51,071 nt of DNA. It comes from Syntrophobacteraceae bacterium CG2_30_61_12 (GTDB lineage: Bacteria; Desulfobacterota; Syntrophobacteria; Syntrophobacterales; DSM-9756). Under the pieces are notes generated by a model. The model did no database searches. It was not told the DNA's origin and was given only the letters and a program-made list of their open reading frames with translations. The stretch is taken from NCBI GenBank assembly GCA_001873705.1, contig MNZR01000016.1, forward strand, positions 1-51,071. Reading direction: 5' to 3'. The translations under genes and the position numbers were made by a program. Of this stretch, positions 1,700 to 31,750 are shown piece after piece. Each line of letters begins with the position of its first letter. Position 1 is the first letter of the stretch.

Positions 1700-2674
1700 A
1701 TGCACTTACGAAAACGGGTATTGGTCACCGGCGGCGCCGGTTTCATCGGCTCCCATTTGTGCGAACGATTGCTTCAGGAGCAATGCGAAGTCCTGTGCGT
1801 GGACAACTTCTATACCGGGAGCAAGCGCAACATCGTCCACCTGCTTTCGCATCCGTGTTTCGAACTGGTCCGTCATGACATCACCTTCCCACTTTATCTC
1901 GAAGTGGACGAAATCTACAACCTGGCCTGTCCGGCTTCACCCATTCACTATCAGCGCGACCCGGTGCAGACCACCAAGGTGAACGTACATGGTTCCATCA
2001 ATATGCTGGGGCTGGCCAAGCGCGTAAAGGCCAGGATCCTGCAAGCATCGACATCCGAGGTCTACGGCGACCCGGACGTTCATCCGCAGCCGGAAGGCTA
2101 TGTCGGGAAGGTCAATCCCATTGGCCCCCGGGCCTGCTATGATGAAGGCAAGCGCTGCGCGGAAACCCTCTTTTTCGACTACCATCGCCAGCACGGACTG
2201 CGGATCAAAGTGGCCAGGATCTTCAACACCTATGGGCCGCGCATGCACCCCAACGACGGTCGAGTGGTTTCCAACTTCATCATGCAGGCCTTGCGGAATC
2301 AACCGATCACCATCTTGGGTGACGGCACCCAGACCCGGTCTTTCTGTTACGTGAGCGACCTGGTGGACGGCCTGATGCGGCTGATGAATACCCCCGACGA
2401 GGTGACCGGTCCGGTGAACCTGGGCAATCCCGCCGAACTGAGCATGCGCGAGTTGGCCGAACAAGTCATCCAATTGACAGGCTCGCGCTCGTCCATTGTG
2501 CAACAGCCCTTGCCGCCGGATGATCCGCGCCGCCGCCGGCCGGACATCGCCATGGCTCGCCGGTACCTGGGTTGGAACCCCAAGGTGGACTTGAAAACGG
2601 GCCTGATGGCTACCGTTGACTACTTCCGCGCCACCTTTGAGATGGGCCGTAACGTGGCTATTGGCAAAGTCTGA
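1700..2674 (+). CDS. uxs: UDP-glucuronate decarboxylase (UDP-xylose synthase), SDR family
   Basis: [19 protein letters not shown] Rossmann motif, [12 protein letters not shown], and catalytic YDEGKRCAE (YxxxK). Length 324 aa is typical. Confidence 0.85.
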
Positions 2675-3005
2675 GCGGAGTGCAAGAGAGGGGACCTGCG
2701 ATCTCTCTGCCGCAGGGCTACCCATGGCATTGCAACCACTGGATTTGCAAGACGATTTGTACGCGATTGGCGTGGATGTCTAGCCCGCTCACTTTGCATG
2801 GAATCGCAAGATGGTTTGGACTGAGTATCGAATTTGCGCCAGGCAAGACCGGTAACGATGAGGGTTTCTGGGGACTCGGGTGGGAAGGACGTCGGCCTCC
2901 ATCCAACACCAGATCGGCGATCTCAGCGGGGAAAGGGCGTGAGTGTTGCTCTAATTCAGAGCACCGTTCTTTCGACCGATGCTGGCTGAACCTGTTTCCC
3001 GTACC

Positions 3006-4454
3006 ATGATCAAGGAGAAACTCTTGCATCGCGGTTCCATCGGCTGCCCCCCGAGTCCCGTTGTCGGTTCACGCTCCGACCGAGACCTGCTGGTGGTTCA
3101 GCTGAACGTCCCTGCGGAAGAGGGAGAGGGTGACTATTTCCACCGTTCTTTTGCACCCGGAAAAGCCTTGTCGGAAAACTCCGGCGTCCATGTCATTAGT
3201 TTGACCAATGAGCATCGTCGGAAGTTTGCCATCATCGAGGCGGCCGATCTGCTGGTGATCACCATGGTGTGCGACCTGGATCTTATGCCGGTCGTCGAAC
3301 GTCGCCGCTGGGCAGGGTTGCCGACCGTATATGAATTGAATGACGATGTCTTCGACCTGCCGGTATCGAACCCGCGTCGCGCCTTCTACTCCAATCCCTT
3401 CAACCGCCAGCTCACCGAACTGCTGATGAAATCTTCGGACGCGGTGCAGTTCAGTTCCAGTGCGCTACAGATCAAGTACGGCCATTACCACGACCGATCC
3501 GCGGTGTTCTCCAATCAGCTCTCGTATCTCCCGCCCGAACGCCTTTGGCGTAACCGCCGGCCGGTGGTCGTGGGCTGGGGCGGGTCGATGGGCCACCTTG
3601 AAGACCTGCAAACGATTTCCGATGCGCTTTCCGGATGGTGCCGCACTCGTGATGATGTGAAGCTCCATCTCATGTGCGCCCCGGCGATCGCTGAACTTTT
3701 CGATGCGGTGCCGGCTCACAAGAAAACGCTTTTCCCGCCTGGTTCCATGCTGGATTACCATCAGTTCTTGGGTACCCTGGATATTGGCATCGCTCCCCTC
3801 AACCCGGTTTCCTACAACTCGGCCCGGTCCGACGTCAAATTTCTGGAATATGCGTCACACGGGGTCGTGCCGGTGTTGCAGCGGGCCCGACCCTACCTGG
3901 AAACGGTCCGGGAGGGGAAAACCGGTCTGATGTTTGACACCATTGATGAACTGTTAAGGCATCTGGATCATCTGGTGGCCGATTATCGCGATCGCGTGCG
4001 CCTGGGGATTGCGGCCCGCGACTTTGTGCTTCGGCACCGGACCCAGGTCCGGGGTGCCGTGGAGCGGCTTGCGTTCTATCAAGGTCTTTTTCCGAGCGGG
4101 GCAACCCGCACCGCGAGCGGGCACGTCCGGGGTCGGTTCGAACAATGGTCCACCCTGGAAGGTGCGGTGCGCCGCGGACGCCACCTGGTGTTGTTGCCGA
4201 CCGCTTTTGAAACAGCCTTGCGGGATGGTCTTTATGCCATGGAAAAAGGTTGGGGCCGGGAAGCCGGAAAATGTTTCCAGATTGCGCAATCGCTCTGCCC
4301 CGATGCCTATCTTCCGTATCTCTATCTCAGCGGCTGTGCCGGAATGGGCAGCAAGGAAGCTGCCGCCTGGGCGAAAGAAGCCCTGGCCAGGAATCCCGAG
4401 TCCCGGATGTGCCGGATGATCTTATCAGCAACCGCGAAAACTGCCGTTGGCTGA
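3006..4454 (+). CDS. GT-B fold glycosyltransferase-like protein with TPR-like C-terminus
   Basis: VVVGWGGSMGHLEDL and RSDVKFLEYASHGVVPV resemble the C-terminal nucleotide-sugar-binding half of GT1/GT4 enzymes. The C-terminus (KCFQIAQSLCPDAYLPYLYLSG...) looks TPR-like. Start placed at MIKEK. Confidence 0.5.
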   Translation: MIKEKLLHRGSIGCPPSPVVGSRSDRDLLVVQLNVPAEEGEGDYFHRSFAPGKALSENSGVHVISLTNEHRRKFAIIEAADLLVITMVCDLDLMPVVERRRWAGLPTVYELNDDVFDLPVSNPRRAFYSNPFNRQLTELLMKSSDAVQFSSSALQIKYGHYHDRSAVFSNQLSYLPPERLWRNRRPVVVGWGGSMGHLEDLQTISDALSGWCRTRDDVKLHLMCAPAIAELFDAVPAHKKTLFPPGSMLDYHQFLGTLDIGIAPLNPVSYNSARSDVKFLEYASHGVVPVLQRARPYLETVREGKTGLMFDTIDELLRHLDHLVADYRDRVRLGIAARDFVLRHRTQVRGAVERLAFYQGLFPSGATRTASGHVRGRFEQWSTLEGAVRRGRHLVLLPTAFETALRDGLYAMEKGWGREAGKCFQIAQSLCPDAYLPYLYLSGCAGMGSKEAAAWAKEALARNPESRMCRMILSATAKTAVG

Positions 4455-4464
4455 AAACGATCGG

Positions 4465-4494
4465 TCAAGGACTCTGGTACCGACAAGCCGATTA
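4465..4494 (+). promoter_or_regulatory. Weak sigma28-like element (TCAAGGAC-N14-GCCGATTA)
   Basis: It has the same TCAAG / TGGTACCG / GCCGATTA blocks as the flgM promoter candidate, but the spacer is 2 nt longer. Confidence 0.2.
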
Positions 4495-4761
4495 GCGGCA
4501 ATCTGCCATTTGTTGCCGTTCTGATTCGGTTTCAGATGGCCTTTGCAGAGCGCTTCATTTGGACGCTTGCGCAGCCTTGCGCGGGCCGGCGATCCAAAGG
4601 CGCGGCAAGAAGTCAATCTCGGCCTGACTCATTGACTGTCATTCTCGCCAAAGCATGCAGGAATGGTGAGGCGCGGCCAAGAGCCAAGAGTCGTCGGTCG
4701 CCCTATCGATATTCCGCTAACAATATACCGGCTGTTTCGAGCCCCTTGATAGCTCTCTGGT

Positions 4762-4777
4762 GGCACAGATCATGCTT
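4762..4777 (+). promoter_or_regulatory. Sigma54 -24/-12 promoter candidate upstream of rfbF
   Basis: TGGCAC-AGATC-ATGCT has correct GG-N10-GC spacing. It lies ~115 nt upstream of the rfbF ATG, inside a 437-bp intergenic region. Confidence 0.45.
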
Positions 4778-4891
4778 GTAATGGCGTGACAGCCAGAAAC
4801 ATTGACGGGGCAGATCCTTTCCGTTGCGAGGCTGGAGAAATCGCATCGGGGCTGCCCGCTGTTAGTAGACACGTGAAGAAGGAACAGGTCG

Positions 4892-5668
4892 ATGAAAGTT
4901 GTGATCTTCGCGGGAGGAATCGGAACGCGGATTTCGGAAGAATCCCACCTCAAACCAAAACCAATGATTGAAATCGGCGGAAAGCCTATTTTGTGGCACA
5001 TCATGAAAATATACGAGAGCCAGGGATTCAATGACTTCATCATTTGCCTAGGCTACAAGGGGTACATTATCAAGGAATATTTCCTGAATTATTATCTTTA
5101 CAATTCTGATGTGACCATCAATCTCCAAACCAACAGCCATGAAGTCCACCGGTCCAACTGTGAGAATTTCCGCATCACCCTGGTAGACACGGGCCTCTTG
5201 AGCGGCACTGCCGGACGTTTGAAGCGAGTAGAACGCTACATCGACAATCACGAGTTCATGCTCACGTATGGTGACGGGCTTGCGGATGTGAATCTGAACG
5301 AACTCCTGGCGTTTCATCGTGCTCGCGGAAAGATCGCCACGGTAACCGCTGTACAACCAGCCGGTCGGTTCGGTCTATTGGGAGTGGACGAAGCCGAGCG
5401 GGTCACGTGTTTCAATGAAAAACCTCTTGGAGACGGGGGCTGGATCAATGGCGGTTTTTTCGTGCTGAAGTCCGAGGTGTTTTCTTTCCTGCCGGAAGAC
5501 TCCGATCAGAAGATGTGGGAACAGGATCCCCTGGAAAACCTGGTTCTCGGTCATGAACTCGTTTCTTACAAGCACCACGGTTTCTGGAAATGCATGGATG
5601 CCTTGCGAGACAAGGAGGAGTTGGAAAGACTCTGGCAGTCGGGGCAGGCTCAATGGAAGACATGGTGA
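4892..5668 (+). CDS. rfbF: Glucose-1-phosphate cytidylyltransferase
   Basis: MKVVIFAGGIGTRISEESHLKPKPMIEIGGKPILWHIMKIY is the characteristic RfbF/DdhA N-terminus. Length is 258 aa. Confidence 0.9.
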   Translation: MKVVIFAGGIGTRISEESHLKPKPMIEIGGKPILWHIMKIYESQGFNDFIICLGYKGYIIKEYFLNYYLYNSDVTINLQTNSHEVHRSNCENFRITLVDTGLLSGTAGRLKRVERYIDNHEFMLTYGDGLADVNLNELLAFHRARGKIATVTAVQPAGRFGLLGVDEAERVTCFNEKPLGDGGWINGGFFVLKSEVFSFLPEDSDQKMWEQDPLENLVLGHELVSYKHHGFWKCMDALRDKEELERLWQSGQAQWKTW

Positions 5669-6771
5669 TGAACCGCGCTTTTTGGAAGGGGAAGTCGGTT
5701 TTCCTGACCGGTCATACTGGTTTCAAGGGCAGCTGGTTTTCCTTGTGGCTGCAACATTTGGGAGCTTGTGTTTCCGGCTATGCGCTGGCTCCGGAGAGCG
5801 GGGAGTGCCTGTATCATCAGGCTAGAGTGGGCGAGAGGTTGCACACGACCTACGGTGATGTGCGCGATGGTGAAAGGCTACACACCGCGATCACCTGGGC
5901 CAAACCCGAGATAGCCCTGCATTTTGCGGCACAACCGCTGGTGCGCGCATCCTACCAAAATCCAGCCTATACTTTTGCGGTCAACGTGATGGGAACGGTC
6001 AATTTCCTGGAAGCCATACGCCGAACGCCATCGGTTCGGGTGGCGGTAGTGGTCACCAGCGACAAGTGCTACGAAAATCGAGAATGGCGGCGGGGCTATC
6101 GTGAGAGCGACCGAATGGGCGGCAGTGATCCCTACTCATGCAGCAAAGGGTGCGCGGAACTGGTGACATCCGCGTATCGCCGTTCCTTTTTCGAAAATGG
6201 TCGGGTGGCGGTGGCCACGGTGCGGGCCGGGAACGTGATGGGCGGTGGGGACTGGGCTGAGGATCGGCTGGTTCCTGACCTGGTGCGCGCATTTGCCGGT
6301 GGCCGCATGGTGAAGCTGAGATATCCGAAGGCGGTGCGACCGTGGCAGTATGTTCTCGATCCGCTTCGCGGCTATATGATGTTGGTCCAACACCTGTGGC
6401 AGGCTGGAGCGACCTATTCAACCGCCTGGAACTTCGGCCCCGGGGACGAGGCTGCCTTTACTGTCGAGGACGTGGTCCGGGAAGCAGCAGGTCGCTGGGG
6501 ACCTGGAGCTTCCTGGGATGTGGATAGATCCTCTCAGCCCCGTGAAAGCCAGCACCTGAAACTTGACTGCTCCCAGGCTTGCTCTCAGTTGGGCTGGATA
6601 CCCCTGTTCGAGTTGGAAACCGCCCTGGATTGGACCCTATCCTGGTATTTGGCCCATCATTCGGGAAACGCGGACATGCGCGCCTTTTCGCAGGCGCAGA
6701 TCGCGGCATATGAAGACCTGTTGGCGGTTGCTCCAGGTCAAACCGAAAGCTGCCGAAGGAGATCGGCGTGA
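5662..6771 (+). CDS. rfbG: CDP-glucose 4,6-dehydratase
   Basis: [24 protein letters not shown] and YSCSKGCAE (YxxxK). The start is ambiguous (ATG at 5653, 5662 or 5668) and overlaps the rfbF stop. Confidence 0.9.
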
Positions 6772-8117
6772 GCGACCTGCGAGAAAAGATGCTTAGGCAG
6801 CAGGCCATTGAAGCGGCTATTGCGCATTATCAGCATGCTCATGGGCGGACCAGCAAGTTCCTTCCCGGGGATCGTGTTCCTTATGGCGGCCGCATTTTCG
6901 ACGCGGATGAGATCGCCAATTTGGTGGACGCATCGCTTGATTTCTGGTTGACGACCGGTCGCTATAGCGAAAGGTTCGAGGGCGAATTCGCCGACTTTCT
7001 CGGTGCTAGGTATTGTTCCCTCACCAACTCTGGATCATCGGCCAATCTGCTCGCTTTTATGGCGCTCACTTCACCAAAGCTTGGCCGACGACGCATCAAC
7101 CCCGGAGATGAGGTGATCACCGTGGCTGCCGCGTTTCCCACCACCGTCGCACCCATTATTCAATATGGGGCTATACCCGTTTTTGTTGATGTCTCGCTCC
7201 CCACTTACAACATCGACGTCGCTTTCCTCGAGTCCGCATTATCCGCAAAGACAAAAGCGGTCATGATCGCCCACACCCTCGGGAACCCCTTTGATCTCGA
7301 GACCGTATCAGCATTTTGCAGACAGCATGATCTCTGGCTCATCGAAGACAACTGCGACGCTCTGGGGGCTCGATATTTCCATGATGGGCACTGGCAATTC
7401 ACCGGGACCTTGGGACATCTCGGCACCTCCAGTTTCTATCCCGCGCATCATATCACGATGGGTGAGGGAGGAGCCGTTTACACCAACGACCTCCAACTGA
7501 AAAAACTAATAGATTCCTTCCGCGACTGGGGCAGGGATTGCTGGTGCCCATCGGGAAAGGACAACACTTGCCGACATCGATTTGAGCAGCGATTCGGTGA
7601 ACTCCCACCCGGATATGATCACAAGTATGTCTACTCGCATTTCGGGTACAACCTCAAGGTCACAGAGATGCAGGCAGCCATTGGCTGCGCTCAACTGCGG
7701 AAGCTTCCGTCTTTTATTTCCCGAAGACAGACCAATTGGCAGTTGCTGCATGCCGGTCTTTATGACATGCAGGACGTTTTCATTCTTCCCCAAGCGACAG
7801 CGAGTTCCGATCCCTCGTGGTTTGGCTTTCTCATTACCATAAAGGACGGCAAGCTCTTCAACAGGCATCAGATAATCAGCCACTTGGAAGAAAAAGGCAT
7901 TCAAACCAGAATGCTGTTTTCGGGCAATCTGCTCAAGCATCCTTGTTTCGATTTGATGCGTGGAACCAACACGGGTTATCGTGTGGTCGGAGACCTTGAG
8001 GTTACCAACCGGATCATGCGCGATTCATTCTGGATTGGAGTCTATCCCGGGTTGAACGATGAAATGATTGCCTATGTTGTTGCGGCGATCCTTGAATACG
8101 TGGAGTCACGGAGATGA
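6768..8117 (+). CDS. rfbH: CDP-4-keto-6-deoxyglucose 3-dehydrase (E1-type, PMP/[2Fe-2S]), DegT family
   Basis: DegT fold. [14 protein letters not shown] has His where aminotransferases carry the Schiff-base Lys. Cys cluster [12 protein letters not shown] (CxCx7C) is present. Length is 449 aa. Confidence 0.85.
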
Positions 8118-8731
8118 TGAAGGTCACCGAAAGCTCCATTCCCGGCTGTTACGAGATCATTTCTCGAGTTTTCCGAGACAATCGAGGGACGTTCGTCAAG
8201 ACATTCCATCACGACATGTTTCTAGAACATGGCCTGACCACTCAATGGAGGGAAGAATACTACTCCGTCTCGCACCACGGTGTTTTGCGGGGACTCCATT
8301 TTCAACTTCCTCCCCATGATCACGAAAAGCTCGTGTACTGCATCGCCGGACGGGTGTTGGATGCCGTGGTAGACCTGCGCAAGGGCTCGCCAACCTTCGG
8401 CCGGCATGTTTTGCTGGAGCTGGATGCAGGGAAAGCAAACATGCTCTATGTCCCCCGGGGGCTTGCCCACGGGTTTTACGTTCTCAGTGACTCAGCAATT
8501 TTGATCTACAAGGCTTCCTCCGTTCATGCACCCGAGCACGATACCGGTATTCACTGGAACACCGCTGGAATTTCATGGCCGGACAAGACTCCTCTGACGT
8601 CGCCACGGGACAATCAGTTTAGCTCATTGGATTGTCTGGATTCCCCTTTCATCTTTCATCAGGGTCAGGCAACGGGCAAACGAAGAAATCGTTCCACCGC
8701 CGGCATTGGCACTGATAACGCATATCGTTGA
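8114..8731 (+). CDS. RmlC-like cupin sugar-nucleotide 3,5- (or 5-) epimerase
   Basis: IPGCYEI...FRDNRGTF...GLHFQ...[10 protein letters not shown] matches the dTDP-4-dehydrorhamnose epimerase fold. The start overlaps the rfbH stop. Confidence 0.7.
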
Positions 8732-8810
8732 ACAGCAAAGGGCTTGGTAACATGAAGTCGGCTCACTTGGATCACGGGGTTGCACCCAGCAACAAATGGA
8801 TAGGGCTTGT

Positions 8811-9695: not shown

Positions 9696-9884
9696 GGAAC
9701 ATCGGCGTTTTACTCACAAACGCATGTTTGCAGTTTCGCGAGTGGAATCGCGAGGTTTCTTGATGGGTAGTCTAGCCTGGTGGCAAGTTGGCGGTGATTC
9801 TGCTCTCACTGCCATGCCAGCAAACGGCCAAGTCGGGGGGAAATTGGACCGGTCAACCCCATAACCACGAGATATTGCCTTTGG

Positions 9885-11135: not shown

Positions 11136-11180
11136 GATTCTTGTACCATTTGTTTAACGAAATACAGGTTGGGGGTTGCG

Positions 11181-13941: not shown

Positions 13942-13959
13942 CAGCAGGGGAGATAAAAC

Positions 13960-17043: not shown

Positions 17044-17150
17044 TTGGGAACAGGGCAAACCATGTCGAAAAGCGGCTTTTGGGATGGACTGCAAGGAGAG
17101 AAGGGCTTCGTTAGCCGAATCACGATTCAGCTAGCATGGGTATATTCGTC

Positions 17151-23675: not shown

Positions 23676-23729
23676 TGCGGCCACGGCGGAGCCCAGTGTG
23701 CTTGAATAGAAGCCATCAAGGAGTTCACA

Positions 23730-24923
23730 ATGTGTGAAATGAACAGCAGATCATTGCAGTCGGAAGAGAAGCCAGACCAATCCGGGAAACTCCGCGATGA
23801 CATGGATTGGGGTGCCGAGGGCGAGAGGAAATTCGCCGGGGGCAGCTATGAAGAAGCCTGCCGATGCTTTGAACGGGCCCTGCAATGCCGGCCTTTTGAC
23901 GCCAAGATGCACAACAACATGAGTGTTGCTCTCTGGCAACAGGGCAATACCGGCGATGCCCTTCAACATCTGACGCAAGCCCTTGAGCTGGACCCGGATG
24001 ATCGGGATGTGATCTTTAATTGCGGCAGGATTTTTTGCAAGCTGGGTCGCCAGGAAGACGCGCGCGAGATTCTGGGAGCTTTCCTTGACAGAAATCCCGG
24101 GGACGGCGAGGCCAAAAACGAACTGGAGCGATTGAATACGCCGGCACAAGATAGTCAACCCGTTGACTCCGCGGCTTTTTTGAACCAGCAGGGAGAGGAA
24201 CAATTCGCCAGGGGGAAAAAGGAGCACGCCCGGGTCTGCTTCGAGTTGGCGTTGGAACACAATCCGGATAGCGCGCGTGCCTGCAACAACCTCGGCGTCC
24301 TTTATTGGGGTGAAGGCGATCTAAAAAAGGCACTGGAGCATCTCTACAAAGCCCTGGACCTTGACGCTGAAGATGCGGAAATCCTTTATAACTCAGCCAA
24401 GGTATTGACGGCATCCGGTGAAGTGGAAACGGCTGCGGATTTCCTACAACTCTATCTGCAAAAGCACCCTCGGGACGAAGCCGCCTGGCAAGATTATAGG
24501 CAACTCATCAGCGAGAGCACGTTCGCCTGGAACAACAACGGATTGGCTCCGGAGGTCGGTGACATTTATCTCCACATGGGGCAGGCGCTGGCAGCAGCCA
24601 AGGACTATCCGGGAGCAGCCGAAGCCTTGGGGCGGGCGGCCATGCTCAAACCCGATGATGCGCAGCCGCTCTATCAATTGGGACTCCTTCATCTCGAACT
24701 CGAGCAAAAGGAAGACGCCATTCGCATGTTCCGGGCCGGCTTGGAAAGGGATCCGGAACACCGAGGGGTGATTCTTGCCCTGGCTCGCGCACTTATCGAA
24801 GAAGGCTGCCAGGAACAAGCTCGGCCCGTGTTGGAAGCTTATCTGGCAGGGCACGAAGACCAAGAAATGGCTTCCTATCTTGAGGATGCCGGGGCCACCA
24901 ATGAGCAGCCTCAGCTCGCCTGA
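23730..24923 (+). CDS. TPR repeat protein
   Basis: Multiple 34-aa repeats, for example EEACRCFERALQCRPFDAKMHNNMSVALWQQGNTGDALQHLTQALELDPDD. AAGGAG lies 6 nt before the ATG. Confidence 0.75.
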   Translation: MCEMNSRSLQSEEKPDQSGKLRDDMDWGAEGERKFAGGSYEEACRCFERALQCRPFDAKMHNNMSVALWQQGNTGDALQHLTQALELDPDDRDVIFNCGRIFCKLGRQEDAREILGAFLDRNPGDGEAKNELERLNTPAQDSQPVDSAAFLNQQGEEQFARGKKEHARVCFELALEHNPDSARACNNLGVLYWGEGDLKKALEHLYKALDLDAEDAEILYNSAKVLTASGEVETAADFLQLYLQKHPRDEAAWQDYRQLISESTFAWNNNGLAPEVGDIYLHMGQALAAAKDYPGAAEALGRAAMLKPDDAQPLYQLGLLHLELEQKEDAIRMFRAGLERDPEHRGVILALARALIEEGCQEQARPVLEAYLAGHEDQEMASYLEDAGATNEQPQLA

Positions 24924-26583
24924 CGGGTGGTTGGCGAGAAATCTCCGCTGCCTTGCCTTGAGCAATCCCGGGCTGGCCGAGCGCTTGTGCGAGCCGGTCG
25001 CGGGCGATCATGTGGAGGTCCTCGCGGCGAAAACGGGAATCGCCACGGCTCGGTTCAACCGAATCCCCGAGTTATGGATTCAGGCGCCGGATGATCCCCG
25101 GGGCGATGCGGAAAAAACCGTTGCCGCTTGGGAGAGCCCAGATGATGGCCCGGTTCTGTGCCTGGGAGTGGGCCTGGGCTATGAGTTGAAAAGTCTACTC
25201 GACAGGTTGCCCTCCGAACGCCGGATGATCGGCTATGAAAGAGACCCGTGGCTGCTGCGGCAGGCCTTTCGGTGTCACGATTTCTCCAAGAATATCTTGT
25301 CTGCTCGATTGTCCTTCCTGCTCGGCACGGATTTGGCCGATGCGCCGATATCCGTTCCACTCAGCTTGTTCCGCCATCCCGTATTGGGTTCCCTCTACCA
25401 ATCGGAAAATGACTATCTGGATCACCGGGTTGGGGAAAAAACGTCACGGCGCGCGATGGTGGTGTCCGGGGGCCTGTTCGTTCAAGACGTTGAAGATGCC
25501 TTGAAGCATTCCGGTTTCAGCATCTTGACCTGGGACCCGAGAAGGGTGTCGCGCAAGGAAAGCGTTCATCAGTTGAAGCGCTTCGGCCCTGAACTTGTAT
25601 TTGCCATCAACTACCTTGCGGGCTTGCCGGAGTTGTGTCGGGAATTGGGAATTCCGTGTGTGATCTGGGAAATCGATCCATGTATCGAACGTCTCCCAGT
25701 CGGGTCCAACCAGCATGACCTGACCATGATTTACACTTACCGCAAGGGGCATGTGAGCCGCTACCGTCTGGCCGGTTTTTCTCATGTGGAGTATCTGCCG
25801 CTGGCGGCCAATCCGAAACGCCGCTATCCAATGCTCCCCAATGCCGACCAGGTGAGTAGATATGGAGCGACGATTTCGTTTGTGGGCAACTCCATGAGGG
25901 ACCAGGCAAAGGCGCTCAAGAAAGTGTTTGCCGAGGTCTGCCGCCACAACTCCATCTCGGACCCGGACCAACATTGGGACCAGGCTCTCGGCGCCCAACA
26001 AATGGACCTCGACCGGGATGTGGTACGGTCCGCATTGGCACGAACACTGAGCAGGGGCAATTCGATCCTTGCCGATGGCAACGGCCGGCTGGTGGACGTG
26101 GCTGCGTGCGCCGCGGAAACGGCTGCGTCGGACCGACGCATCCAGCTGATCGCTGCCCTGGCGACTCATGGTTTCGGTATTTCAGTTTGGGGAGATCCTG
26201 GCTGGGAGGAAGGGTGCTCGGCGGCTGATTACCGTGGGTGGGCCGGCCATGACCGGGAATTGACGGCGATTTACAATGCCAGCGTCATAAATTTGGACAT
26301 CAACCGCCTGTACCAGAGCGATATCGCCACCATGCGTGTTTTCGACGTGCTCGCCTGCAAGGGCTTTCTCCTGGCCGATTGTTCTTCCGCTGTCCAGGAC
26401 CTGTTCGAGGTGGGCGCTGAACTGGTGGTGTACCGCTCGACAAAGGAACTGCTTCACCTGGTCGAGTATTATCTCAAGCATGAGAAAGAGCGGGATCAAA
26501 TCGCCGAGGCAGGGCACTTGCGAGTGCTGCGGAACCACACGATTGAGCAAAGGATCGCTTGGGTCCTTGCTGAACTCGGATGA
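24901..26583 (+). CDS. CgeB-like (DUF3880 / Glyco_trans_1_2-type) glycosyltransferase with Maf-like N-terminal region
   Basis: C-terminus YNASVINLDINRLYQSDIATMRVFDVLACKGFLL...ELVVYRSTKELLHLVEYYLKHEKERDQIAEAGHLRVLRNHTIEQR resembles the CgeB family. N-terminus LARNLRCLALSNPGLAERL...LCLGVGLGYEL resembles the start of motility accessory factors. The ATG at 24901 overlaps the TPR gene end. Confidence 0.55.
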   Translation: MSSLSSPDGWLARNLRCLALSNPGLAERLCEPVAGDHVEVLAAKTGIATARFNRIPELWIQAPDDPRGDAEKTVAAWESPDDGPVLCLGVGLGYELKSLLDRLPSERRMIGYERDPWLLRQAFRCHDFSKNILSARLSFLLGTDLADAPISVPLSLFRHPVLGSLYQSENDYLDHRVGEKTSRRAMVVSGGLFVQDVEDALKHSGFSILTWDPRRVSRKESVHQLKRFGPELVFAINYLAGLPELCRELGIPCVIWEIDPCIERLPVGSNQHDLTMIYTYRKGHVSRYRLAGFSHVEYLPLAANPKRRYPMLPNADQVSRYGATISFVGNSMRDQAKALKKVFAEVCRHNSISDPDQHWDQALGAQQMDLDRDVVRSALARTLSRGNSILADGNGRLVDVAACAAETAASDRRIQLIAALATHGFGISVWGDPGWEEGCSAADYRGWAGHDRELTAIYNASVINLDINRLYQSDIATMRVFDVLACKGFLLADCSSAVQDLFEVGAELVVYRSTKELLHLVEYYLKHEKERDQIAEAGHLRVLRNHTIEQRIAWVLAELG

Positions 26584-26627
26584 GAAGAAGGGGTCTTGAT
26601 CATCGTTAGGGCCATTTCAAACAAGAT

Positions 26628-26700
26628 CACCCACGGAGGCACAGAGGACCCAGAGAAATTCCAAGGTTTTTCTCCGTGTCCTCCGTGTTCTCTGTGGTGA
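26628..26700. repeat. REP-like compound hairpin in the intergenic region
   Basis: CACGGAGGCACAGAGGA...TCTCCGTGTCCTCCGTG...TCTCTGTGG. The arms are built from CACGGAGG/CACAGAGG units and their complements. Confidence 0.55.
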
Positions 26701-26756
26701 AAGCCTTTTGCTGTGGACGAAACGATGATCGTCGCCGAGGAAAGGTATCGGCCGGC

Positions 26757-28451
26757 ATGAAAATCAGCCTTTGCATGATCGTGAAAGATGAGCAGCAGCT
26801 TCTGGCCCGTTGTCTTGATAGTGTGCGCCATGTGGTGGACGAGATGGTGATTGTCGACACCGGATCCAGGGATCGGACCCGAGAAATCGCGTCTTCCTAC
26901 GGCGCCAGGATGGTGGATTTTACCTGGACCAACGACTTCGCCGCGGCACGCAATGTCGCGCTTGGGCACGCCTCCGGAGATTGGATCTTATGCTTGGATG
27001 CGGATGAGTTGTTAAAGATGCCCGTTGGCGGAAGCGGCCTGGACCAATTGGCCGCGGCCGATGAGGCGGACGCCTATTCCGTTCCGATTCAGAACAACAA
27101 ACTGGAAGGGGGATTCGAATTTCATTACGCAATTCGATTCTTCCGCAAGCTGCCTGGTATCCGATTTATCGGCAAGGTTCATGAGCGCGTTGACGAGAGC
27201 CTGTTCCATGAACAAGCGCGCATCCGCCAGGCCCCGTTTTCCATTGAACACACCGGCTACGCGATTCCTCCGGAAGAGATGGAGGAAAAGCTCAAGCGCA
27301 ATGCCAAACTGCTCCAGGATCAAATCGAGCAGGATCCCGGCAACTGTTTTGCGCACTACTACCTGGGGCTGACCTGGATCGGCCTGAAGGAATTCGACAA
27401 GAGTTTCCTGCATCTGCGGAGAGCACGGCAACTCGGTCCCGCGACGATCAATCTGAGTTGCTTGATCGATAACATCCTGGCCTACCATTACCTGGATCGA
27501 GAAGATTACCTGACGGCGGCAACCATCGCTCGCCGTTCACTGCGCGCACTGCCGGAGCAGAACACCGCCAAGCTATTCCTTGGAATAGCCCTTTTCAACC
27601 AGGGATCTCACCGGGAAGCCCTGCCCTTGCTGCGGGCCGCCTATCAGTTTCTGCGCCTCCCGATCGAGAGCAGGCGGACCCAACTGAGCCAGGAACACTC
27701 CTACAACGAGGCCGATCTGCTATGGGCATTGACCCGATCCGCGGCGGAGACGGGAGACTACGAAGGGGCCTTTGCTTACGTCCAACAGGTCCTGCGACTG
27801 CGGCCCGGGGACGCCAAGGCCTATCTGGCCAAAGCGCTTTGCTGCCTTTCGCTTGACGCAACCGTCGAAGCGAGAACCGCTCTCGCCAGGGCTCGGCACT
27901 TGGGACTGCCGGCTCGGGATCTGGCTTGGGCCGCATTGCAATTGGCGCTCAAAACCGGGGACCTGAATGCAGCCTCGGCCGTTCTGATGGACCACGCCGA
28001 TGCGTTGCTGGAAAACGATATGGGTCGGCAAGCGTTCGCAACATGGGTGGACCGATACGTCCGGGCGGGCAAGGAGGACACTCTTTTCAAGCTTCTGCTT
28101 CAAATGAATCAACAACATTCAGAGAGTCCGGCCATTCTGGATGCCTTGGCTTTTACCGCAATCAGGCAAGGCCGCTACCTGGATGCAAGGCGAGCGCTGG
28201 AGAGGCTGTCGCTCCTGGTCCCATCCCAACCCGATATCATGAAGCGGCTGGCGGGAATATACCTGCATCTGGGGCAGCGTGAACTGGCGGCACGGATGCT
28301 CCAAAAGGTGCGAGCGGCGGACCTTGAGGGACTTGGTTCCGCAGTTGGGAACAGTTACCCCTTGCCGAAGGGGGGCACCGATGGGGGGCCATTCAACCCG
28401 GCTTCCAGCGGGATTTGCCGCCGCGCTGGTCCGGAGGTCCACGATGGGTGA
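26757..28451 (+). CDS. GT2 glycosyltransferase fused to a long TPR domain
   Basis: MKISLCMIVKDEQQLLARCL...VIVDTGSRDRT...DFAAARNVAL...LCLDADE, followed by ~380 aa of TPR-like repeats. GAAAGG lies before the ATG. Confidence 0.75.
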   Translation: MKISLCMIVKDEQQLLARCLDSVRHVVDEMVIVDTGSRDRTREIASSYGARMVDFTWTNDFAAARNVALGHASGDWILCLDADELLKMPVGGSGLDQLAAADEADAYSVPIQNNKLEGGFEFHYAIRFFRKLPGIRFIGKVHERVDESLFHEQARIRQAPFSIEHTGYAIPPEEMEEKLKRNAKLLQDQIEQDPGNCFAHYYLGLTWIGLKEFDKSFLHLRRARQLGPATINLSCLIDNILAYHYLDREDYLTAATIARRSLRALPEQNTAKLFLGIALFNQGSHREALPLLRAAYQFLRLPIESRRTQLSQEHSYNEADLLWALTRSAAETGDYEGAFAYVQQVLRLRPGDAKAYLAKALCCLSLDATVEARTALARARHLGLPARDLAWAALQLALKTGDLNAASAVLMDHADALLENDMGRQAFATWVDRYVRAGKEDTLFKLLLQMNQQHSESPAILDALAFTAIRQGRYLDARRALERLSLLVPSQPDIMKRLAGIYLHLGQRELAARMLQKVRAADLEGLGSAVGNSYPLPKGGTDGGPFNPASSGICRRAGPEVHDG

Positions 28452-30081
28452 TCCGGGCAGCCTCTCGGTGTGCATGATTGTTCGGGATGAGGCTCGCCGG
28501 ATCGGCAAGGCATTGCATTGTTTCCAGAGCTTCGCCGATGAGATCATCGTGGTCGATACGGGGTCTCGAGACGAAACCAAGGAAATTGCCCGCGGATTCA
28601 CACCAAATTTGTTCGAGTTTGCTTGGTGTGATGATTTCGCGGCGGCCCGCAACGTCTCACTGGAACACGCCCATTGCAGTCATATTTTATGGCTGGATGC
28701 CGATGATCTGGTGGACGATGAGAATATCAATAAAATATTGCGCTTGAAACGGCTATTGGACAGCAACATCGCTTACTCCTTGGTGCTGCAAGATGTCCGA
28801 GCGGGAAAGCCGAGGCATTCCCTATACCAGTTGCGTTGCGTACCCAATCGATCCGATGTCCGTTTCGAGGGCCGTATTCATGAGGTCCTCGATCCCAGTG
28901 CCGCAGCCGCGGGTTTGACATTTGCCAGGGTGGACATCACCATCACCCACCATGGTTATGAAGATCCCTCCCTGTTCCGCGCCAAGGTGGAACGGAATAT
29001 TCAACTGATCAACCGGGAAATCCGGGCCGGGCGAGACGACACTCGGATCCTCTATTTTCTTGCTCAAAGTTACGGTTATTTGGGAAAATCCGAGGAAGCC
29101 GTGGCGACCATGCGTGAGGTTTTGAACCGGCTCGAGAGAAATACTCTGGAGCACCCCTTTTCGCAATCAAGTCTTACCGAACAACGGCAGCGCATCACCG
29201 ATAGTTGCCTCTTTCTTGCTGCACAACTGAGCGCGGCCCAGGACCAATCCGGCGCCCGTCGCTACCTTGTTAAGGCCCGGGCCGGAGCTTTCGATGATCG
29301 TTATGCGCTCTATCAAGTTGGGAACCTGCTGCAAAAAATCGGCGACCATGAGCAGGCCGTCGCCGTATTGGCGCTGGCTTTGGAATCAATCCAGAACACT
29401 TGTCATCTGCCTCGGCTTCCTGTCACTGATGCCAATATCTACGCACAGATGGCCTACAGTCATTATTGTCTGAACCGGCGCGCGACGGCCTTGCAATGCA
29501 TCGAGAACGGGTTGCGAACCGGATCGAGCCTGGAAATTTGGCAGCAGATCGCCGCCAAGGCCATGCAAGAGGGACGCTTTCAGTTGGCTCAGGAAGCCTA
29601 TGACTGTGCGGAACAAGATGGTGAATTAGCCGCGGACGGTTACTGCAACATGGGGTTGTTGCGAAGTAAAATCGGCGATCATTCGAAGGCTCGAAGATAT
29701 TTCGAGATGGCCCTGGGAAAACAGAAAAACCATTTGGATACCTTAATCAACTGGGCGCATTTGGAGCTCAGACTCGGCCGGTTCATGAAGGCGTGCCGAC
29801 TCTATGCCGGTGCCGTCGAAGCCGGCAGTCGCGGCCTGGATGTCATGCTGGCCTATTGCGCCACGGCGTATCGCACTGGAGTCACCGACAATCGAGTGAT
29901 CAAAGAGATCCTAGAAAAACAAATGGTGGAGGAGTTTGGTCGCACGATTCCAGGATCGGCGGCCGCGGATGTCAGGGTCCTTTTTGGCCTGGCGAAAAGG
30001 ATAGTGGAGGAAAAACACCGTCCCGGCTTGATCCGTTGGGCGCTAATTCTTGAAAAGCACGTGATGGGGGAGGGGCGCTAG
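28444..30081 (+). CDS. GT2 glycosyltransferase fused to a TPR domain, paralogue of 26757..28451
   Basis: LSVCMIVRDEARRIGKAL...IVVDTGSRDETKEIA...DFAAARNVSL...LWLDADD plus TPR repeats. There is an 8-nt overlap with the upstream paralogue. Confidence 0.75.
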   Translation: MGDPGSLSVCMIVRDEARRIGKALHCFQSFADEIIVVDTGSRDETKEIARGFTPNLFEFAWCDDFAAARNVSLEHAHCSHILWLDADDLVDDENINKILRLKRLLDSNIAYSLVLQDVRAGKPRHSLYQLRCVPNRSDVRFEGRIHEVLDPSAAAAGLTFARVDITITHHGYEDPSLFRAKVERNIQLINREIRAGRDDTRILYFLAQSYGYLGKSEEAVATMREVLNRLERNTLEHPFSQSSLTEQRQRITDSCLFLAAQLSAAQDQSGARRYLVKARAGAFDDRYALYQVGNLLQKIGDHEQAVAVLALALESIQNTCHLPRLPVTDANIYAQMAYSHYCLNRRATALQCIENGLRTGSSLEIWQQIAAKAMQEGRFQLAQEAYDCAEQDGELAADGYCNMGLLRSKIGDHSKARRYFEMALGKQKNHLDTLINWAHLELRLGRFMKACRLYAGAVEAGSRGLDVMLAYCATAYRTGVTDNRVIKEILEKQMVEEFGRTIPGSAAADVRVLFGLAKRIVEEKHRPGLIRWALILEKHVMGEGR

Positions 30082-30085
30082 CTTA

Positions 30086-31750
30086 ATGCATTGGGCAAGT
30101 TTTGATCCATTCACCATTGAAGATGCCTACTGGCAAGACAAGATGGGTATGCCCGTGGCCAATTTGGAGTTCCTGCAGGCGATCTTGGTGGCTGGGGATG
30201 TTGACAGTTTCCGCTTCTTTTGTGCGGATGCGGCTCAGTCTCGGAAGTTCTCCAACAAGCTTCGGCAGTTGGTTCCAACGGCCGGTTCAAAAATTCAGGT
30301 GCTTCCCCAAGCGTTGGCGCCGCAAAGCCTCCGTCGGCAGCCGCCGGACGTGATGCACAATGGAGACTTCACTCACTACATGCCGTACCTCATCGAGTGG
30401 CGCAATCGTGCGTTTGCCGACCGGCCGTTTCCGATCACCGGCGTGACCCACTCTTTGGACACCGTTTCCTTGCATGGCAAGTTCATTCAATTGCTGCTCG
30501 CCAATCCCAAGCCTTATGATGCCATCATTTGTTCCAGCCAGTGTGCCGTCGATATGTTACGGAACTCTTTCGCCGGAATTCGTGAAGCCTTGAAGGTTGC
30601 CTATGGAGCGAGTCTGCCGGCCCCCCCTCGGTTGGTCCGAATTCCACTGGGGATCGCGGACCGGGAATTCACGGCGGGGCAAAAAACGGTGGCGCGCAGG
30701 CGTCTGGGAATTCCTGAAGATCGTTTTGTGTTGCTCCATCTGGCTCGTTTTTCCCCGCGCCGGAAGATGGACCTGGCGCCATTTCTCGAGGCTCTGGCCG
30801 GGCTCAAGGGCCGAACCTTTGCCGGTCGCTCGTTGCCGCCCTGGCAATTGATCCTGGCCGGAGCCGGCAAGAAAGCCGACTTGACCCTGGTGCAAGAGAT
30901 GCTTGCTCGCCTCGGGCTCGATCGCGAGGTGCGCATCGAGCCCAACGTAACCCGGGAGAGGAAAGAGCTTTTGTTCCAGGCGGCCGACACCTTCTGTTCG
31001 TTGGTGGACAATCATCAGGAAACCTTCGGCCTGACGGTTGTCGAGGCCATGGCTCGGGGGCTGCCGGTCATCGCCTCTGACTTTAACGGCTACAAGGAAC
31101 TGGTCTCACCTGGGCGGACCGGATTTCTGATCCCCACCTACGAGAGTCTCGGCCACGAACCTTGGGAGGCCTTGTCCGGGCTGCTGGATCCTTCCATGCT
31201 GCGGTTTTATCGAGCCCAGAAAATTTCTTTTGACATTGATACCTTTTCCGATGCGGTGGTGCAGATGGCGTTCAGGCCCGAGTTGCGGGAGGCGATGGGC
31301 CGGCGGGCGCGGATTCGAGCGGAACCGTATCGGTGGTCGTCGATCTTGAAGGACTACCACCAGCTCTGGAAATCCCTGGCGCGGGAAGCACGGATGACAC
31401 GGGGCAAGAAGAATGTTGGTGGCAATCCGCTCCCCCTGTTGACCCCGTGCATGAACAGGAGTTTTTCGCATTTCCCGAGTGGCTCGATCTCATCCGATTC
31501 GATTTTGGGGTCGAGCGCCCATGCGAGTTGCCTTCCCAAAGGATTCGAACCCATTCGCTACGATGAGATGGCCATTCTGCTTCGTGACGATTGCCTTCAC
31601 TTCATCCTGGAGCAGTTCGAAAAGGGAGATTGCAATGTGCGCGAATTGGAAGATGAGGTGGTCGATCGGTTCCGGATGGACCAAGACCTTGTCCTGGTGC
31701 ATCTGGACTGGCTTTTGAAACATGGGCTGATCACTGTAAAAAAACTCTAA
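30086..31750 (+). CDS. GT4 (GT-B) family glycosyltransferase
   Basis: ETFGLTVVEAMARGLPVIASDFNGYKELV (Ex7E region). Confidence 0.75.
   Translation: MHWASFDPFTIEDAYWQDKMGMPVANLEFLQAILVAGDVDSFRFFCADAAQSRKFSNKLRQLVPTAGSKIQVLPQALAPQSLRRQPPDVMHNGDFTHYMPYLIEWRNRAFADRPFPITGVTHSLDTVSLHGKFIQLLLANPKPYDAIICSSQCAVDMLRNSFAGIREALKVAYGASLPAPPRLVRIPLGIADREFTAGQKTVARRRLGIPEDRFVLLHLARFSPRRKMDLAPFLEALAGLKGRTFAGRSLPPWQLILAGAGKKADLTLVQEMLARLGLDREVRIEPNVTRERKELLFQAADTFCSLVDNHQETFGLTVVEAMARGLPVIASDFNGYKELVSPGRTGFLIPTYESLGHEPWEALSGLLDPSMLRFYRAQKISFDIDTFSDAVVQMAFRPELREAMGRRARIRAEPYRWSSILKDYHQLWKSLAREARMTRGKKNVGGNPLPLLTPCMNRSFSHFPSGSISSDSILGSSAHASCLPKGFEPIRYDEMAILLRDDCLHFILEQFEKGDCNVRELEDEVVDRFRMDQDLVLVHLDWLLKHGLITVKKL

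Follow-up and report, generated by a model that had tools for sequence, protein, structure and literature searches.

A probable flagellin glycosylation island with CDP-sugar genes and a radical SAM/FkbM cassette next to fliC in a Syntrophobacteraceae bacterium

Flagellin glycosylation without nonulosonic acids is known from Pseudomonas, Burkholderia, Listeria, C. difficile, and Paenibacillus. The Listeria enzyme, GmaR, adds GlcNAc to flagellin and consists of a glycosyltransferase (GT) domain followed by tetratricopeptide repeats (TPR) (PMC9638930). Flagellin islands have been surveyed in Enterobacteriaceae and Geobacillus; such islands are typically built of a fixed transferase core and, beside it, a donor region of hypervariable content (PMC4875605, PMC5109656). 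Genes for CDP-4-keto-6-deoxyglucose were described in 2016 in the type 23 islands of Erwinia and Pantoea (PMC4875605), and in 2026 islands for CDP-paratose/3,6-dideoxyhexose with GT2-TPR proteins as candidate GTs were predicted in Clostridium, namely in C. butyricum DSM 10702, C. sporogenes NCIMB 10696, and C. thermosuccinogenes (PMC13317340). Here, we describe a 30-kb glycan block in a 51-kb stretch of DNA, called the window below, from the uncultured Syntrophobacteraceae bacterium CG2_30_61_12 (contig MNZR01000016.1). The window is a flagellar super-locus in which this block is inserted before the flagellin gene, fliC. We read the block as a flagellin glycosylation island of two layers that uses a cassette-tailored CDP-sugar, and we put the probability of this whole reading at roughly three in four. 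That the locus is a flagellin glycosylation island is very probable when taken alone; that a (di)deoxyhexose derivative from the cassette ends up on the flagellin has somewhat better than even odds.

The island, at positions 1700-31750 on the plus strand, was defined from a listing of open reading frames (ORFs) with Pfam and NCBIfam scans, and all our conclusions were drawn from such ORFs, profile scans, alignments, and contig contexts. The Pfam scan covered 30 plus-strand ORFs spanning 518-36064 and 10 of the larger ones in 36287-49478. The island holds 22 ORFs, all on the same strand as stated in the original prediction, whose count of 21 genes is reached only when a 109-residue ORF without a family is dropped. 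Its tally of eight GT genes with 11 catalytic domains and several TPR modules was matched by the Pfam scan, the TPR modules lying in two GT2-TPR proteins and in a TPR-only protein at 23730. The part of the island next to fliC, with the flagellin gene itself, comprises the following features.

23730-24923, plus strand: TPR-only protein of the conserved core, matching many TPR families
24901-26583, plus strand: GT with DUF3880 and Glyco_trans_1_2 domains (PF13524, 110 bits; PF12996)
26676-28451, plus strand: GmaR-like GT2-TPR protein a, candidate flagellin O-glycosyltransferase by homology to GmaR; probable start at 26757
28444-30081, plus strand: GmaR-like GT2-TPR protein b, candidate flagellin O-glycosylation enzyme by homology to GmaR
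30086-31750, plus strand: GT4 of 554 amino acids (GT4b), immediately before fliC (PF00534, 87 bits)
31748-31774, plus strand: sigma-28-type promoter of fliC, TAAAG-N15-GTCGATC, overlapping the GT4b stop codon
31854-32699, plus strand: fliC, a short flagellin with Flagellin_N and Flagellin_C; probable start at 31860 (MALRINT...), giving 279 amino acids

For GT2-TPR protein a, GmaR was the best match among solved structures (E = 1.3e-32 to 2.6e-33), with an alignment over residues 30-219, the whole GT domain of ~190 residues, that includes a long identical N-terminal block and pairs CLDADE with AIDADE at the DAD motif. Protein b, which carries a WLDADD motif, matched GmaR with an E value of 9.6e-23 and SunS with 1.6e-21. 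In the ranking of solved structures, GmaR was followed by the peptide glycosyltransferases SunS/ThuS. TPR_16, TPR_19, TPR_1, and related Pfam families lie C-terminal to the GT2 domain in the GT2-TPR proteins; the structure match to GmaR spans the GT domain only, and the proteins measure 545-591 amino acids versus 637 for GmaR. The resemblance to the Listeria monocytogenes system thus includes a homologous N-terminal GT-A domain of ~190 amino acids with a DxD motif, the TPR repeats that follow it, and a short flagellin with only D0/D1 domains (279 amino acids here), GmaR being the model for cytoplasmic O-glycosylation of Ser/Thr. The flagellin of Listeria, FlaA, has 287 amino acids. The systems differ in that two paralogs are present here, within a 22-gene island that has nine further GT domains, and for this reason the product would be an oligosaccharide and not a single GlcNAc. 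GmaR also carries a MogR-binding antirepressor domain; no MogR-like gene was noticed here.

The closest genomes all belong to the Syntrophobacteraceae (phylum Thermodesulfobacteriota) and comprise an uncultured metagenome-assembled genome (L003), Desulfacinum hydrothermale DSM 13146 (L017), GCA_054038085.1 (L018), and a Desulfosoma metagenome-assembled genome (L019/L020), with flagellins 73, 74, 83, and 70% identical to that of the window, respectively. The order TPR protein, (DUF3880-GT), GT2-TPR a, GT2-TPR b, GT4 of ~555 amino acids, fliC, fliD, and two fliS genes was found in four of the four, despite GT identities as low as 37-55%, compared with 70-83% for fliC. Among these orthologs, the TPR-only protein is 40-53% identical in L003, L017, L018, and L019, and GT4b, adjacent to fliC in the same four, is 46-55% identical; the DUF3880-GT is 44-48% identical in L003 and L018, and across the four relatives GT2-TPR a and b are 41-47 and 37-41% identical, respectively. 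GT2-TPR a orthologs in this range of identity were always located next to fliC. Because the GT2-TPR superfamily glycosylates various proteins, the assignment of flagellin as the acceptor rests on this synteny and not on homology alone. A match of GT4b to PF20706 (“GT4-conflict”), which might have linked it to defense systems, was dismissed as weak, generic GT4 similarity (27 bits). As separate observations, one flagellin gene was seen per stretch in the window and in L017, L018, and L019, and the flagellin of the window also occurs on two JGI metagenome contigs.

Upstream of the core, each relative is entirely different. L003 carries methyltransferases, a thiamine pyrophosphate (TPP)-dependent enzyme, NeuB, GT11, and a 3×GT2 protein; Desulfacinum has a sulfotransferase-GT fusion and a transposase; L018 has radical S-adenosylmethionine (SAM)/SPASM genes, FkbM, GT4-TPR, and a CMP-sugar-synthetase-like (CTP_transf_3) gene; and Desulfosoma has divergent RfbF/G/H, NeuB-cupin, and a TPP enzyme, its RfbF/G/H homologs (49-54% identity) lying directly beside the GT core and fliC. 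To the question raised in the original prediction, whether the block is always syntenic with fliC in relatives, the answer is therefore divided: the GT core is in all four, and the upstream donor part differs in each.

We propose that the conserved core (~23.7-31.75 kb), with its TPR protein, DUF3880-GT, two GmaR-like GT2-TPR proteins, and 554-residue GT4, forms the first layer of the system. The TPR domains of the GmaR-like enzymes would serve to recognize flagellin in the cytoplasm before its export, and these enzymes would place the first sugar on Ser/Thr residues of the short central segment of the flagellin, after which the remaining GTs would lengthen the chain before FliS-assisted export. 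Given the 11 catalytic domains, the glycan is probably a sizeable oligosaccharide.

An alternative view of such a gene set is that of an ordinary O-antigen, capsule, or exopolysaccharide cluster that happens to lie next to fliC. RfbF/G/H, an RmlC-like epimerase, and multidomain GT2 proteins are indeed classic O-antigen components, and multi-GT2 proteins resemble the O-polysaccharide synthases that depend on ABC transporters. However, the island encodes no Wzx/Wzy, Wzm/Wzt, or WecA/WbaP-type protein, nor any membrane protein. Neither Pfam nor NCBIfam returned a Wzx, Wzy, ABC transporter, or phosphoglycosyl transferase family in the island, and hydropathy analysis found no convincing transmembrane segment in any protein encoded at 1700-31750 (maximum KD19 of 1.62, in two soluble-type enzymes). 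As membrane, export, and priming proteins are all lacking from the island, we infer that its pathway has to end on a cytoplasmic acceptor. In addition, the GT core is GmaR/SunS-like, i.e. protein- or peptide-directed, and its synteny with fliC persists in four genomes at 37-55% protein identity. These data make a chance association of a polysaccharide cluster with fliC highly improbable.

The genes on both sides of the cassette, which include two nucleotide-sugar routes, are as follows.

1700-2674, plus strand: UXS, UDP-glucuronate decarboxylase (414 bits, E = 3e-123, full length to human UXS1)
2979-4454, plus strand: weakly GT-B-like protein of 491 amino acids (Glyco_trans_1_2, 24.7 bits; Glyco_trans_1_4, 20.9 bits; no NCBIfam match)
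4892-5668, plus strand: RfbF, glucose-1-phosphate cytidylyltransferase (TIGR02623, 394 bits; cut-off 300)
5590-6771, plus strand: RfbG, CDP-glucose 4,6-dehydratase (TIGR02622, 456 bits; cut-off 278)
6768-8117, plus strand: RfbH/E1-type CDP-4-keto-6-deoxyglucose 3-dehydrase (NF011936, 724 bits; cut-off 423)
8114-8731, plus strand: RmlC-like sugar 3,5-/5-epimerase (PF00908, 192 bits; TIGR01221, 168 bits, cut-off 156)
8796-9695, plus strand: short-chain dehydrogenase/reductase (SDR), presumed 4-ketoreductase of the CDP-sugar (Pfam Epimerase, 110 bits; no equivalog)
18493-19695, plus strand: GT2 glycosyltransferase (PF00535, 93 bits)
19767-23675, plus strand: protein of 1302 amino acids with four GT2 domains (PF00535 in four stretches, 352 bits)

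UXS is well separated from its next PDB match (141 bits) and was assigned by Pfam to Epimerase/GDP_Man_Dehyd. In the protein encoded at 2979-4454, both Pfam GT scores are just below the cut-off. The TIGR02622 alignment of RfbG begins at residue 31, and the real start is probably at 5653-5668. RfbH contains the Cys motif C196-x61-C258-x-C260-x7-C268 and has AHH at the place where aminotransferases carry the pyridoxal phosphate lysine, which we take to be the [2Fe-2S] Cys motif and the His-for-Lys exchange of E1 enzymes. RfbH is a dehydrase and not a PseC-like transaminase; on the PseC model it scored 189 bits against a cut-off of 423.5. The candidate terminal enzymes are the RmlC-like epimerase and the SDR, which has no assigned family but a 61% identical ortholog in the equivalent position in contig L025. 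The four-GT2 protein has a 49% identical 3×GT2 ortholog in the equivalent position in L003.

In Yersinia pseudotuberculosis (AscA-F) and Salmonella (rfbFGHI), a cytidylyltransferase, a 4,6-dehydratase, a pyridoxamine phosphate/[2Fe-2S] E1 enzyme, an epimerase, and a 4-reductase act in this order. As these pathways are commonly described, the island shares with them the enzyme order, the E1 Cys motif, and the His-for-Lys exchange of RfbH. It differs from them by its additional radical SAM and methyl-tailoring enzymes, and the acceptor, an undecaprenyl-linked O-unit in the Asc/Rfb systems, would here be a cytoplasmic protein.

The island also lacks the genes around which many flagellin islands are organized. 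No NeuB, PseB/PseC, LegB/LegC, CMP-sugar synthetase, or Maf family was matched by Pfam or NCBIfam among the plus-strand ORFs scanned, and a tblastn search of the window with the relatives' NeuB, CTP_transf_3, and TPP enzymes gave only E values above 0.2, in agreement with the original prediction that PseB/PseC/NeuB-like genes are absent. The Maf/nonulosonic acid islands of Campylobacter, Helicobacter, Aeromonas, and Clostridium, from which the window differs in having no Maf, NeuB, PseB/C, or CMP-sugar synthetase, are similar in their flagellin-adjacent position, their hypervariable gene content, and the proposed cytoplasmic modification before export. The lineage as a whole is not free of nonulosonic acid chemistry, as NeuB-family genes lie beside the same GT core in L003 and L019 and a CTP_transf_3 gene in L018. 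A TPP-dependent enzyme of ~600 amino acids accompanies NeuB near the core in both L019 (1692-8479, NeuB-cupin, by RfbF/G/H) and L003 (2493-5276). By analogy with YerE of the yersiniose pathway, the flagellins of these two genomes may carry a branched-chain, yersiniose-like, or higher-carbon sugar.

The lack of nonulosonic acids does not make the locus new, because flagellin islands without them are well known; the contrast that had been drawn with the described Pse/Leg/Maf islands was in this respect overstated. The proposal of an undescribed O-glycan chemistry on a flagellin fared better as regards the flagellin glycosylation island itself than as regards novelty, since CDP-dideoxyhexose islands had already been predicted. 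We found no report in the open-access literature of a 3,6-dideoxyhexose experimentally shown on flagellin. The Clostridium, Erwinia, and Pantoea islands resemble ours in having RfbF/RfbG/RfbH-type genes between flagellar genes and GT2-TPR proteins as the proposed flagellin GTs, and they are, like ours, bioinformatic predictions only (PMC13317340, PMC4875605). They belong to other phyla than Thermodesulfobacteriota. The finishing enzymes here are RmlC-like and SDR proteins (the L-series, ascarylose-like) in place of RfbS (paratose), and UXS, two FkbM proteins, a B12-binding radical SAM enzyme, and three twitch-type radical SAM enzymes are extra here, none of them being mentioned in PMC13317340 or PMC4875605. 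Compared with the known islands, this one differs in its phylum, in how large a set of transferases it has, and most of all in this radical SAM/FkbM cassette, which consists of the following genes.

9885-11135, plus strand: FkbM-family methyltransferase 1 (PF05050, TIGR01444; GC 43%)
11169-12767, plus strand: radical SAM enzyme with a B12-binding domain, a C-methylase or an AprD4-like dehydratase (PF02310 and PF04055; GC 42%)
12706-13941, plus strand: FkbM-family methyltransferase 2 with a PglD_N-like N-terminal domain (PF05050; PF17836, 22.4 bits)
13960-14982, plus strand: twitch-type (BtrN-like) radical SAM enzyme, paralog 1, with CxxxCxxC (CNFRCAYC) at residue 36
14994-16010, plus strand: twitch-type radical SAM enzyme, paralog 2 (Radical_SAM and SPASM)
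16024-17043, plus strand: twitch-type radical SAM enzyme, paralog 3 (Radical_SAM and SPASM)
17136-18449, plus strand: GT4 traveling with the cassette (GT4a), presumed transferase of the tailored sugar (PF00534/PF13692)

The methylation/radical SAM module named in the original prediction was thus found, with two FkbM proteins, the B12-binding enzyme, and three further radical SAM enzymes; what had been missed is that the cassette is mobile. Among characterized solved structures, the B12-binding enzyme is nearest to AprD4 (E = 9e-14) and then to TokK, with the uncharacterized radical SAM protein 9ccb (E = 9e-15) scoring slightly above AprD4. The three twitch-type paralogs share 33-37% mutual identity, and each has CxxxCxxC and one auxiliary cluster only. 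C245, C263, C307, and C310 of paralog 1 align one-to-one with the auxiliary-cluster cysteines of BtrN (sCmvp, lpCfed, lCknC), and these four residues are invariant in 31 homologs; DesII was among the weaker structure matches of the twitch proteins. All of these radical SAM matches are of low similarity (E = 1e-9 to 1e-14) and partial coverage. BtrN is the aminocyclitol dehydrogenase of butirosin biosynthesis, AprD4 is the sugar diol dehydratase of apramycin biosynthesis, and TokK is a methylase. The PglD_N domain binds a nucleotide sugar in PglD, and its weak counterpart in the second FkbM protein would suggest action on the CDP-sugar. On the basis of the BtrN/AprD4/DesII relatives and of this PglD_N-like domain, we infer sugar tailoring rather than peptide maturation, of a kind that may comprise oxidation, epimerization, dehydration, and C-/O-methylation. 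Like the genes of the island, those of BtrN, AprD4, and DesII, the best characterized solved-structure relatives, are found among sugar-pathway genes; they serve antibiotic biosynthesis, whereas here three ordered paralogs with FkbM proteins would act on a presumed CDP-hexose for surface glycosylation.

One could also suppose that the three radical SAM enzymes act on a peptide, be it the flagellin polypeptide or another, instead of a sugar, since SPASM/twitch enzymes are mostly peptide maturases, the proteins match SPASM in Pfam, and they show weak NCBIfam similarity to PqqE and to several maturases of peptides made by the ribosome and modified after translation (RiPPs). The single auxiliary cluster with BtrN spacing argues otherwise, and no small precursor-peptide gene was noticed. 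The radical SAM genes always stand amid CDP-sugar genes, FkbM, and GT4, also in loci without flagellin, and paralogs 2 and 3 keep 78-82% identity between unrelated hosts that have very different flagellins (279 amino acids here versus at least 781 in contig L022). A peptide substrate is accordingly hard to credit, and we keep to the tailoring of a sugar.

Base composition and conservation bear on the history of the cassette. The genes for FkbM1 and the B12-binding enzyme have 42-43% GC (44-47% at third codon positions), compared with 56-59% GC in their neighbors, and the stretch from FkbM2 through the three radical SAM genes shows ~70% nucleotide identity over 4 kb with contigs L021 and L022, from hosts of differing GC. 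This is a sign of recent transfer and indicates that the cassette is horizontally mobile. A search with radical SAM paralog 1 returned many homologs at 56-68% identity; in a metagenome scan with the radical SAM alignment, whose patterns were generic, contigs L024-L029 were the only true family members among the matches listed. In L021 and L022, orthologs of paralogs 1, 2, and 3 occur in the same order at 63-67, 78-82, and 79-82% identity, preceded by the FkbM genes (52-62%; 52-56% for FkbM1 and 57-62% for FkbM2) and followed by a GT4 (44-50%). GT4a, 44-62% identical in L021, L022, and L025, lies after the radical SAM triplet in the first two contigs and after the gene for the B12-binding enzyme in L025, and before the radical SAM genes in L023, L024, and L105.

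The cassette is accompanied by CDP-sugar genes in other genomes as well. L025 carries in one run RfbG, RfbH, RmlC, SDR (61%), FkbM, three radical SAM genes, the B12-binding radical SAM gene (52%), and GT4 (62%), and L104 (GCA_033851995.1) has RfbF, RfbG, an RfbH-like DegT protein, RmlC, and SDR beside the cassette. L022, L023, and L105 have a cytidylyltransferase, an RmlC-like gene, and an SDR, with a 4,6-dehydratase also in L023 and L105, and none of the three has RfbH beside the cassette. 3-Deoxygenation therefore appears as an optional add-on to a base pathway for CDP-6-deoxyhexose.

Linkage of the cassette to flagellar genes was tallied in ~9 hand-inspected contexts, picked from long contigs with long flanks. 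No more than 10 kb separate the cassette from flagellar genes in the window, in L018 (fliC), in L022 (FlaF, FlbT, a flagellin of at least 781 amino acids, and a 1232-residue protein with a GmaR-like domain), in L023 from Aminipila terrae (flagellin, an FlhB-like gene, and an 852-residue GmaR-like GT2), and in L105 (FlgM and a methyl-accepting chemotaxis protein); a frameshift-ridden Caloramator assembly (L106) is a weak case. The linkage thus extends over three phyla: Thermodesulfobacteriota, Bacillota, and FlaF/FlbT-type Pseudomonadota. With a chance adjacency to a flagellar gene that we estimate ourselves at ~1% per locus, the association is real, yet it is not exclusive, as nonflagellar contexts occur. 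The picture is that of a portable “exotic sugar” module, often but not always found in flagellin islands. We found no paper in the open-access literature that links radical SAM/SPASM enzymes to flagellin glycosylation. Our proposal that the cassette makes a previously unknown CDP-sugar with heavy radical and methyl tailoring, transferred between phyla and used mainly for flagellin, is tentative, with odds somewhat below even.

Within the two-layer scheme, the second layer would be the variable donor-supply region at 1.7-19.7 kb. UXS would make UDP-xylose, and RfbF, RfbG, RfbH, the RmlC-like epimerase, and the SDR would lead to a CDP-3,6-dideoxy-L-hexose of the ascarylose type, with an E3-type reductase provided from elsewhere. 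The horizontally acquired cassette, with its two FkbM proteins, B12-binding enzyme, and three twitch-type enzymes, would tailor this CDP-sugar at the nucleotide-sugar level, and GT4a would transfer the tailored sugar.

Several observations weigh against this scheme. Compared with the Asc and Rfb pathways, the window has no E3 reductase of the RfbI/AscD/DdhD type, which RfbH needs in the known pathway: Pfam matched no FAD_binding_6, NAD_binding_1, or Fer2 protein among the plus-strand ORFs scanned, the related clusters in L019, L025, and L104 showed none either, and the 1-kb gap between RfbG and RfbH in L025 contains no ORF of at least 150 amino acids. The E3 reductase may be encoded elsewhere or replaced. 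Of the two nucleotide-sugar routes originally predicted, the genes for UXS, RfbF/G/H, epimerase, and SDR are all present, and it is the 3,6-dideoxy route that is incomplete in the window. The flagellin is short, as predicted; the Ser/Thr enrichment of its central segment is only modest (~27% versus 20% overall). A search of the open literature gave no report that this or any other Syntrophobacteraceae flagellin is glycosylated, and the only sign of a flagellar-type promoter before the island itself was a weak sigma-54-like motif.

Also on this side of the balance, distant GT2-TPR homologs (31-39% identity over half the length) lie beside nonflagellar genes, next to Ena endospore-appendage genes in Paenibacillus (L107) and to type IX secretion system cargo in an Ignavibacteria-type contig (L108). 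The cassette, too, occurs without flagellar genes within 10 kb, in L024 with MBOAT, GT11, and GT2, in what looks like a polysaccharide locus, and in L104 with a PMT_2 GT-C and a prepilin-like protein. Three details of these contigs deserve mention in their own right. In L107 (GCA_026786845.1, 8001-14346), GT2-TPR-type proteins of 760 (two GT2 domains) and 382 amino acids and a further GT2 lie beside three A_ENA genes, so that Ena fibers may be glycosylated by GmaR-like enzymes. In L104 (1-21008), a VKOR-DsbA fusion, a prepilin-type (N_methyl) protein, and PMT_2 stand beside the cassette, the sugar of which may be used there on a pilin-like protein. In L024 (263-4607), AbiGi-like and AAA_15/AbiEii-like defense genes are inserted in the middle of the glycan cluster that carries the cassette.

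The most serious competitor, although unlikely, is a composite locus, in which only the core at ~23.7-31.75 kb serves flagellin and the left part (UXS, the CDP-sugar genes, the radical SAM/FkbM cassette, GT4a, GT2, and the four-GT2 protein) builds another glycoconjugate, for example a surface polysaccharide or another glycoprotein, with export and priming functions encoded elsewhere. The seemingly nonflagellar settings of the cassette in L024 and L104 fit this idea, as does the lack of conservation of the left part among relatives; the 42-43% GC of the FkbM1 and B12-binding enzyme genes against 56-59% points to separate acquisition, and a 437-nucleotide gap with a possible promoter of its own before rfbF suggests separate transcription. 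On the other hand, no exporter, flippase, polymerase, or priming transferase is encoded within the 30 kb, and the genes are tightly packed on the same strand up to fliC. The cassette lies near flagellar genes in three phyla, and RfbF/G/H do so too in Desulfosoma, independently. A hypervariable donor region beside a fixed GT core is, moreover, normal for flagellin islands (PMC4875605, PMC5109656). We therefore favor a single flagellin glycosylation island over a locus of two functions.

The remaining signals and features concern transcription and the flagellar surroundings of the island.

2680-3009, plus strand: 109-residue ORF without a Pfam family, overlapping the next ORF by 31 nucleotides; may not be a gene
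4761-4776, plus strand: sigma-54-like -24/-12 motif with one mismatch, TGGCAC-N5-aTGCT, in the 437-nucleotide gap before rfbF; a weak lead
32738-32764, plus strand: intrinsic terminator after fliC, with an 11-bp stem, nine G-C pairs, and a T-rich tail
32790-32816, plus strand: second exact sigma-28 motif, TAAAG-N15-GCCGATC (TAAAGCCGTCGGCGGATTCAGCCGATC, 0 mismatches), between the fliC terminator and fliD
32823-35172, plus strand: fliD (FliD_N/C) and two fliS paralogs (FliS in both), in the same order in L017, L018, and L019

Intergenic gaps of more than 100 nucleotides occur in the island only at 4455-4891 and 9696-9884. Terminator-like signals in it are all weak and at the level of shuffled sequences (21 observed versus 20.7, and 18 versus 18.8), and the same scan placed a strong terminator only after fliC, so that no convincing terminator interrupts the run from uxs to GT4b, as had been predicted. 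A sigma-70 promoter scan gave counts equal to the shuffle expectation, and both scans are informative inside the island only as “no strong terminator.” Sigma-54 motifs were likewise not above shuffles in the window (8 versus 4.9), their sole perfect -24/-12 match lying at 43528-43543, just before flgB, and a sigma-54 activator is encoded at 41917-43296. Through the sigma-54-like site before rfbF, the sugar operon may be connected with the flagellar sigma-54 regulon.

The overlap of the GT4b stop codon with the fliC promoter, another element of the original prediction, is exact: the TAA at 31748-31750 forms the first three bases of the sigma-28 motif. In alignments, both sigma-28 boxes before fliC are kept with the same spacing in three of the four relatives; in Desulfosoma, the fourth, the CCGAT box is kept and the aligned stretch starts past the TAAAG position. 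The sigma-28 pattern of the lineage has exactly two sites in the 51 kb, before fliC and before fliD, and with the second placed between the fliC terminator and fliD, fliD seems to have its own late promoter. In the fliC leader (31800-31862), there are two conserved AAGGA boxes, GCAAGGATG ~35 nucleotides upstream and TCAAGGAGGA at the Shine-Dalgarno site, both kept in relatives, the upstream one with minor substitutions. A FliW-CsrA-flagellin partner switch is known in Bacillus, and the boxes together with the nearby fliW, csrA, and cheD would fit control of this type.

Downstream of the island, fliC, fliD, the two fliS paralogs, and flaG follow on the plus strand. The tandem fliS paralogs (34267-35172), of 125 and 146 amino acids, are kept in every relative examined. 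According to the gene calls of an overlapping contig (L002), cheD, fliW, and csrA lie on the minus strand at ~36.3-37.7 kb, and flgM, from the same gene calls, a 917-residue TPR protein, the sigma-54 activator, flgC, fliF, fliG, and fliI are found farther downstream. The gene for this TPR protein (39130-41883; 888 amino acids on L002) lies just upstream of that for the sigma-54 flagellar activator. At the left, an MNT/HepT (nucleotidyltransferase/HEPN) toxin-antitoxin pair at 518-1545 borders the island, and a similar HEPN/NTP_transf_2 pair is located between fliW and csrA in the Desulfosoma locus (L019, 19255-20213). A tRNA scan and an Rfam gathering scan of the window returned zero matches; there is accordingly neither a tRNA integration site nor a riboswitch, such as one for cobalamin, in the window.

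Flagellin glycans shape filament assembly, motility, and recognition by phages and the immune system. To our knowledge, almost all of the known flagellin-glycan chemistry comes from pathogens, and the pathways in which radical SAM enzymes are so far known to tailor nucleotide sugars are mainly those of aminoglycosides and macrolides. The locus would extend GmaR-type flagellin glycosylation to anaerobic relatives of sulfate reducers, and its 11 GT domains imply a large oligosaccharide instead of a single sugar. The cassette is compact, is up to 82% identical at the protein level across unrelated hosts, and provides a defined substrate hypothesis, CDP-6-deoxyhexose or CDP-3,6-dideoxyhexose. Cultured organisms exist for both layers, with Desulfacinum hydrothermale DSM 13146 carrying the GT core and Aminipila terrae carrying the cassette next to flagellin. 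If our proposal for the cassette is true, radical SAM carbohydrate chemistry would gain a new branch, one that serves primary surface glycosylation and not the making of antibiotics, and a widespread version of it for surface glycoproteins would open new enzymology.

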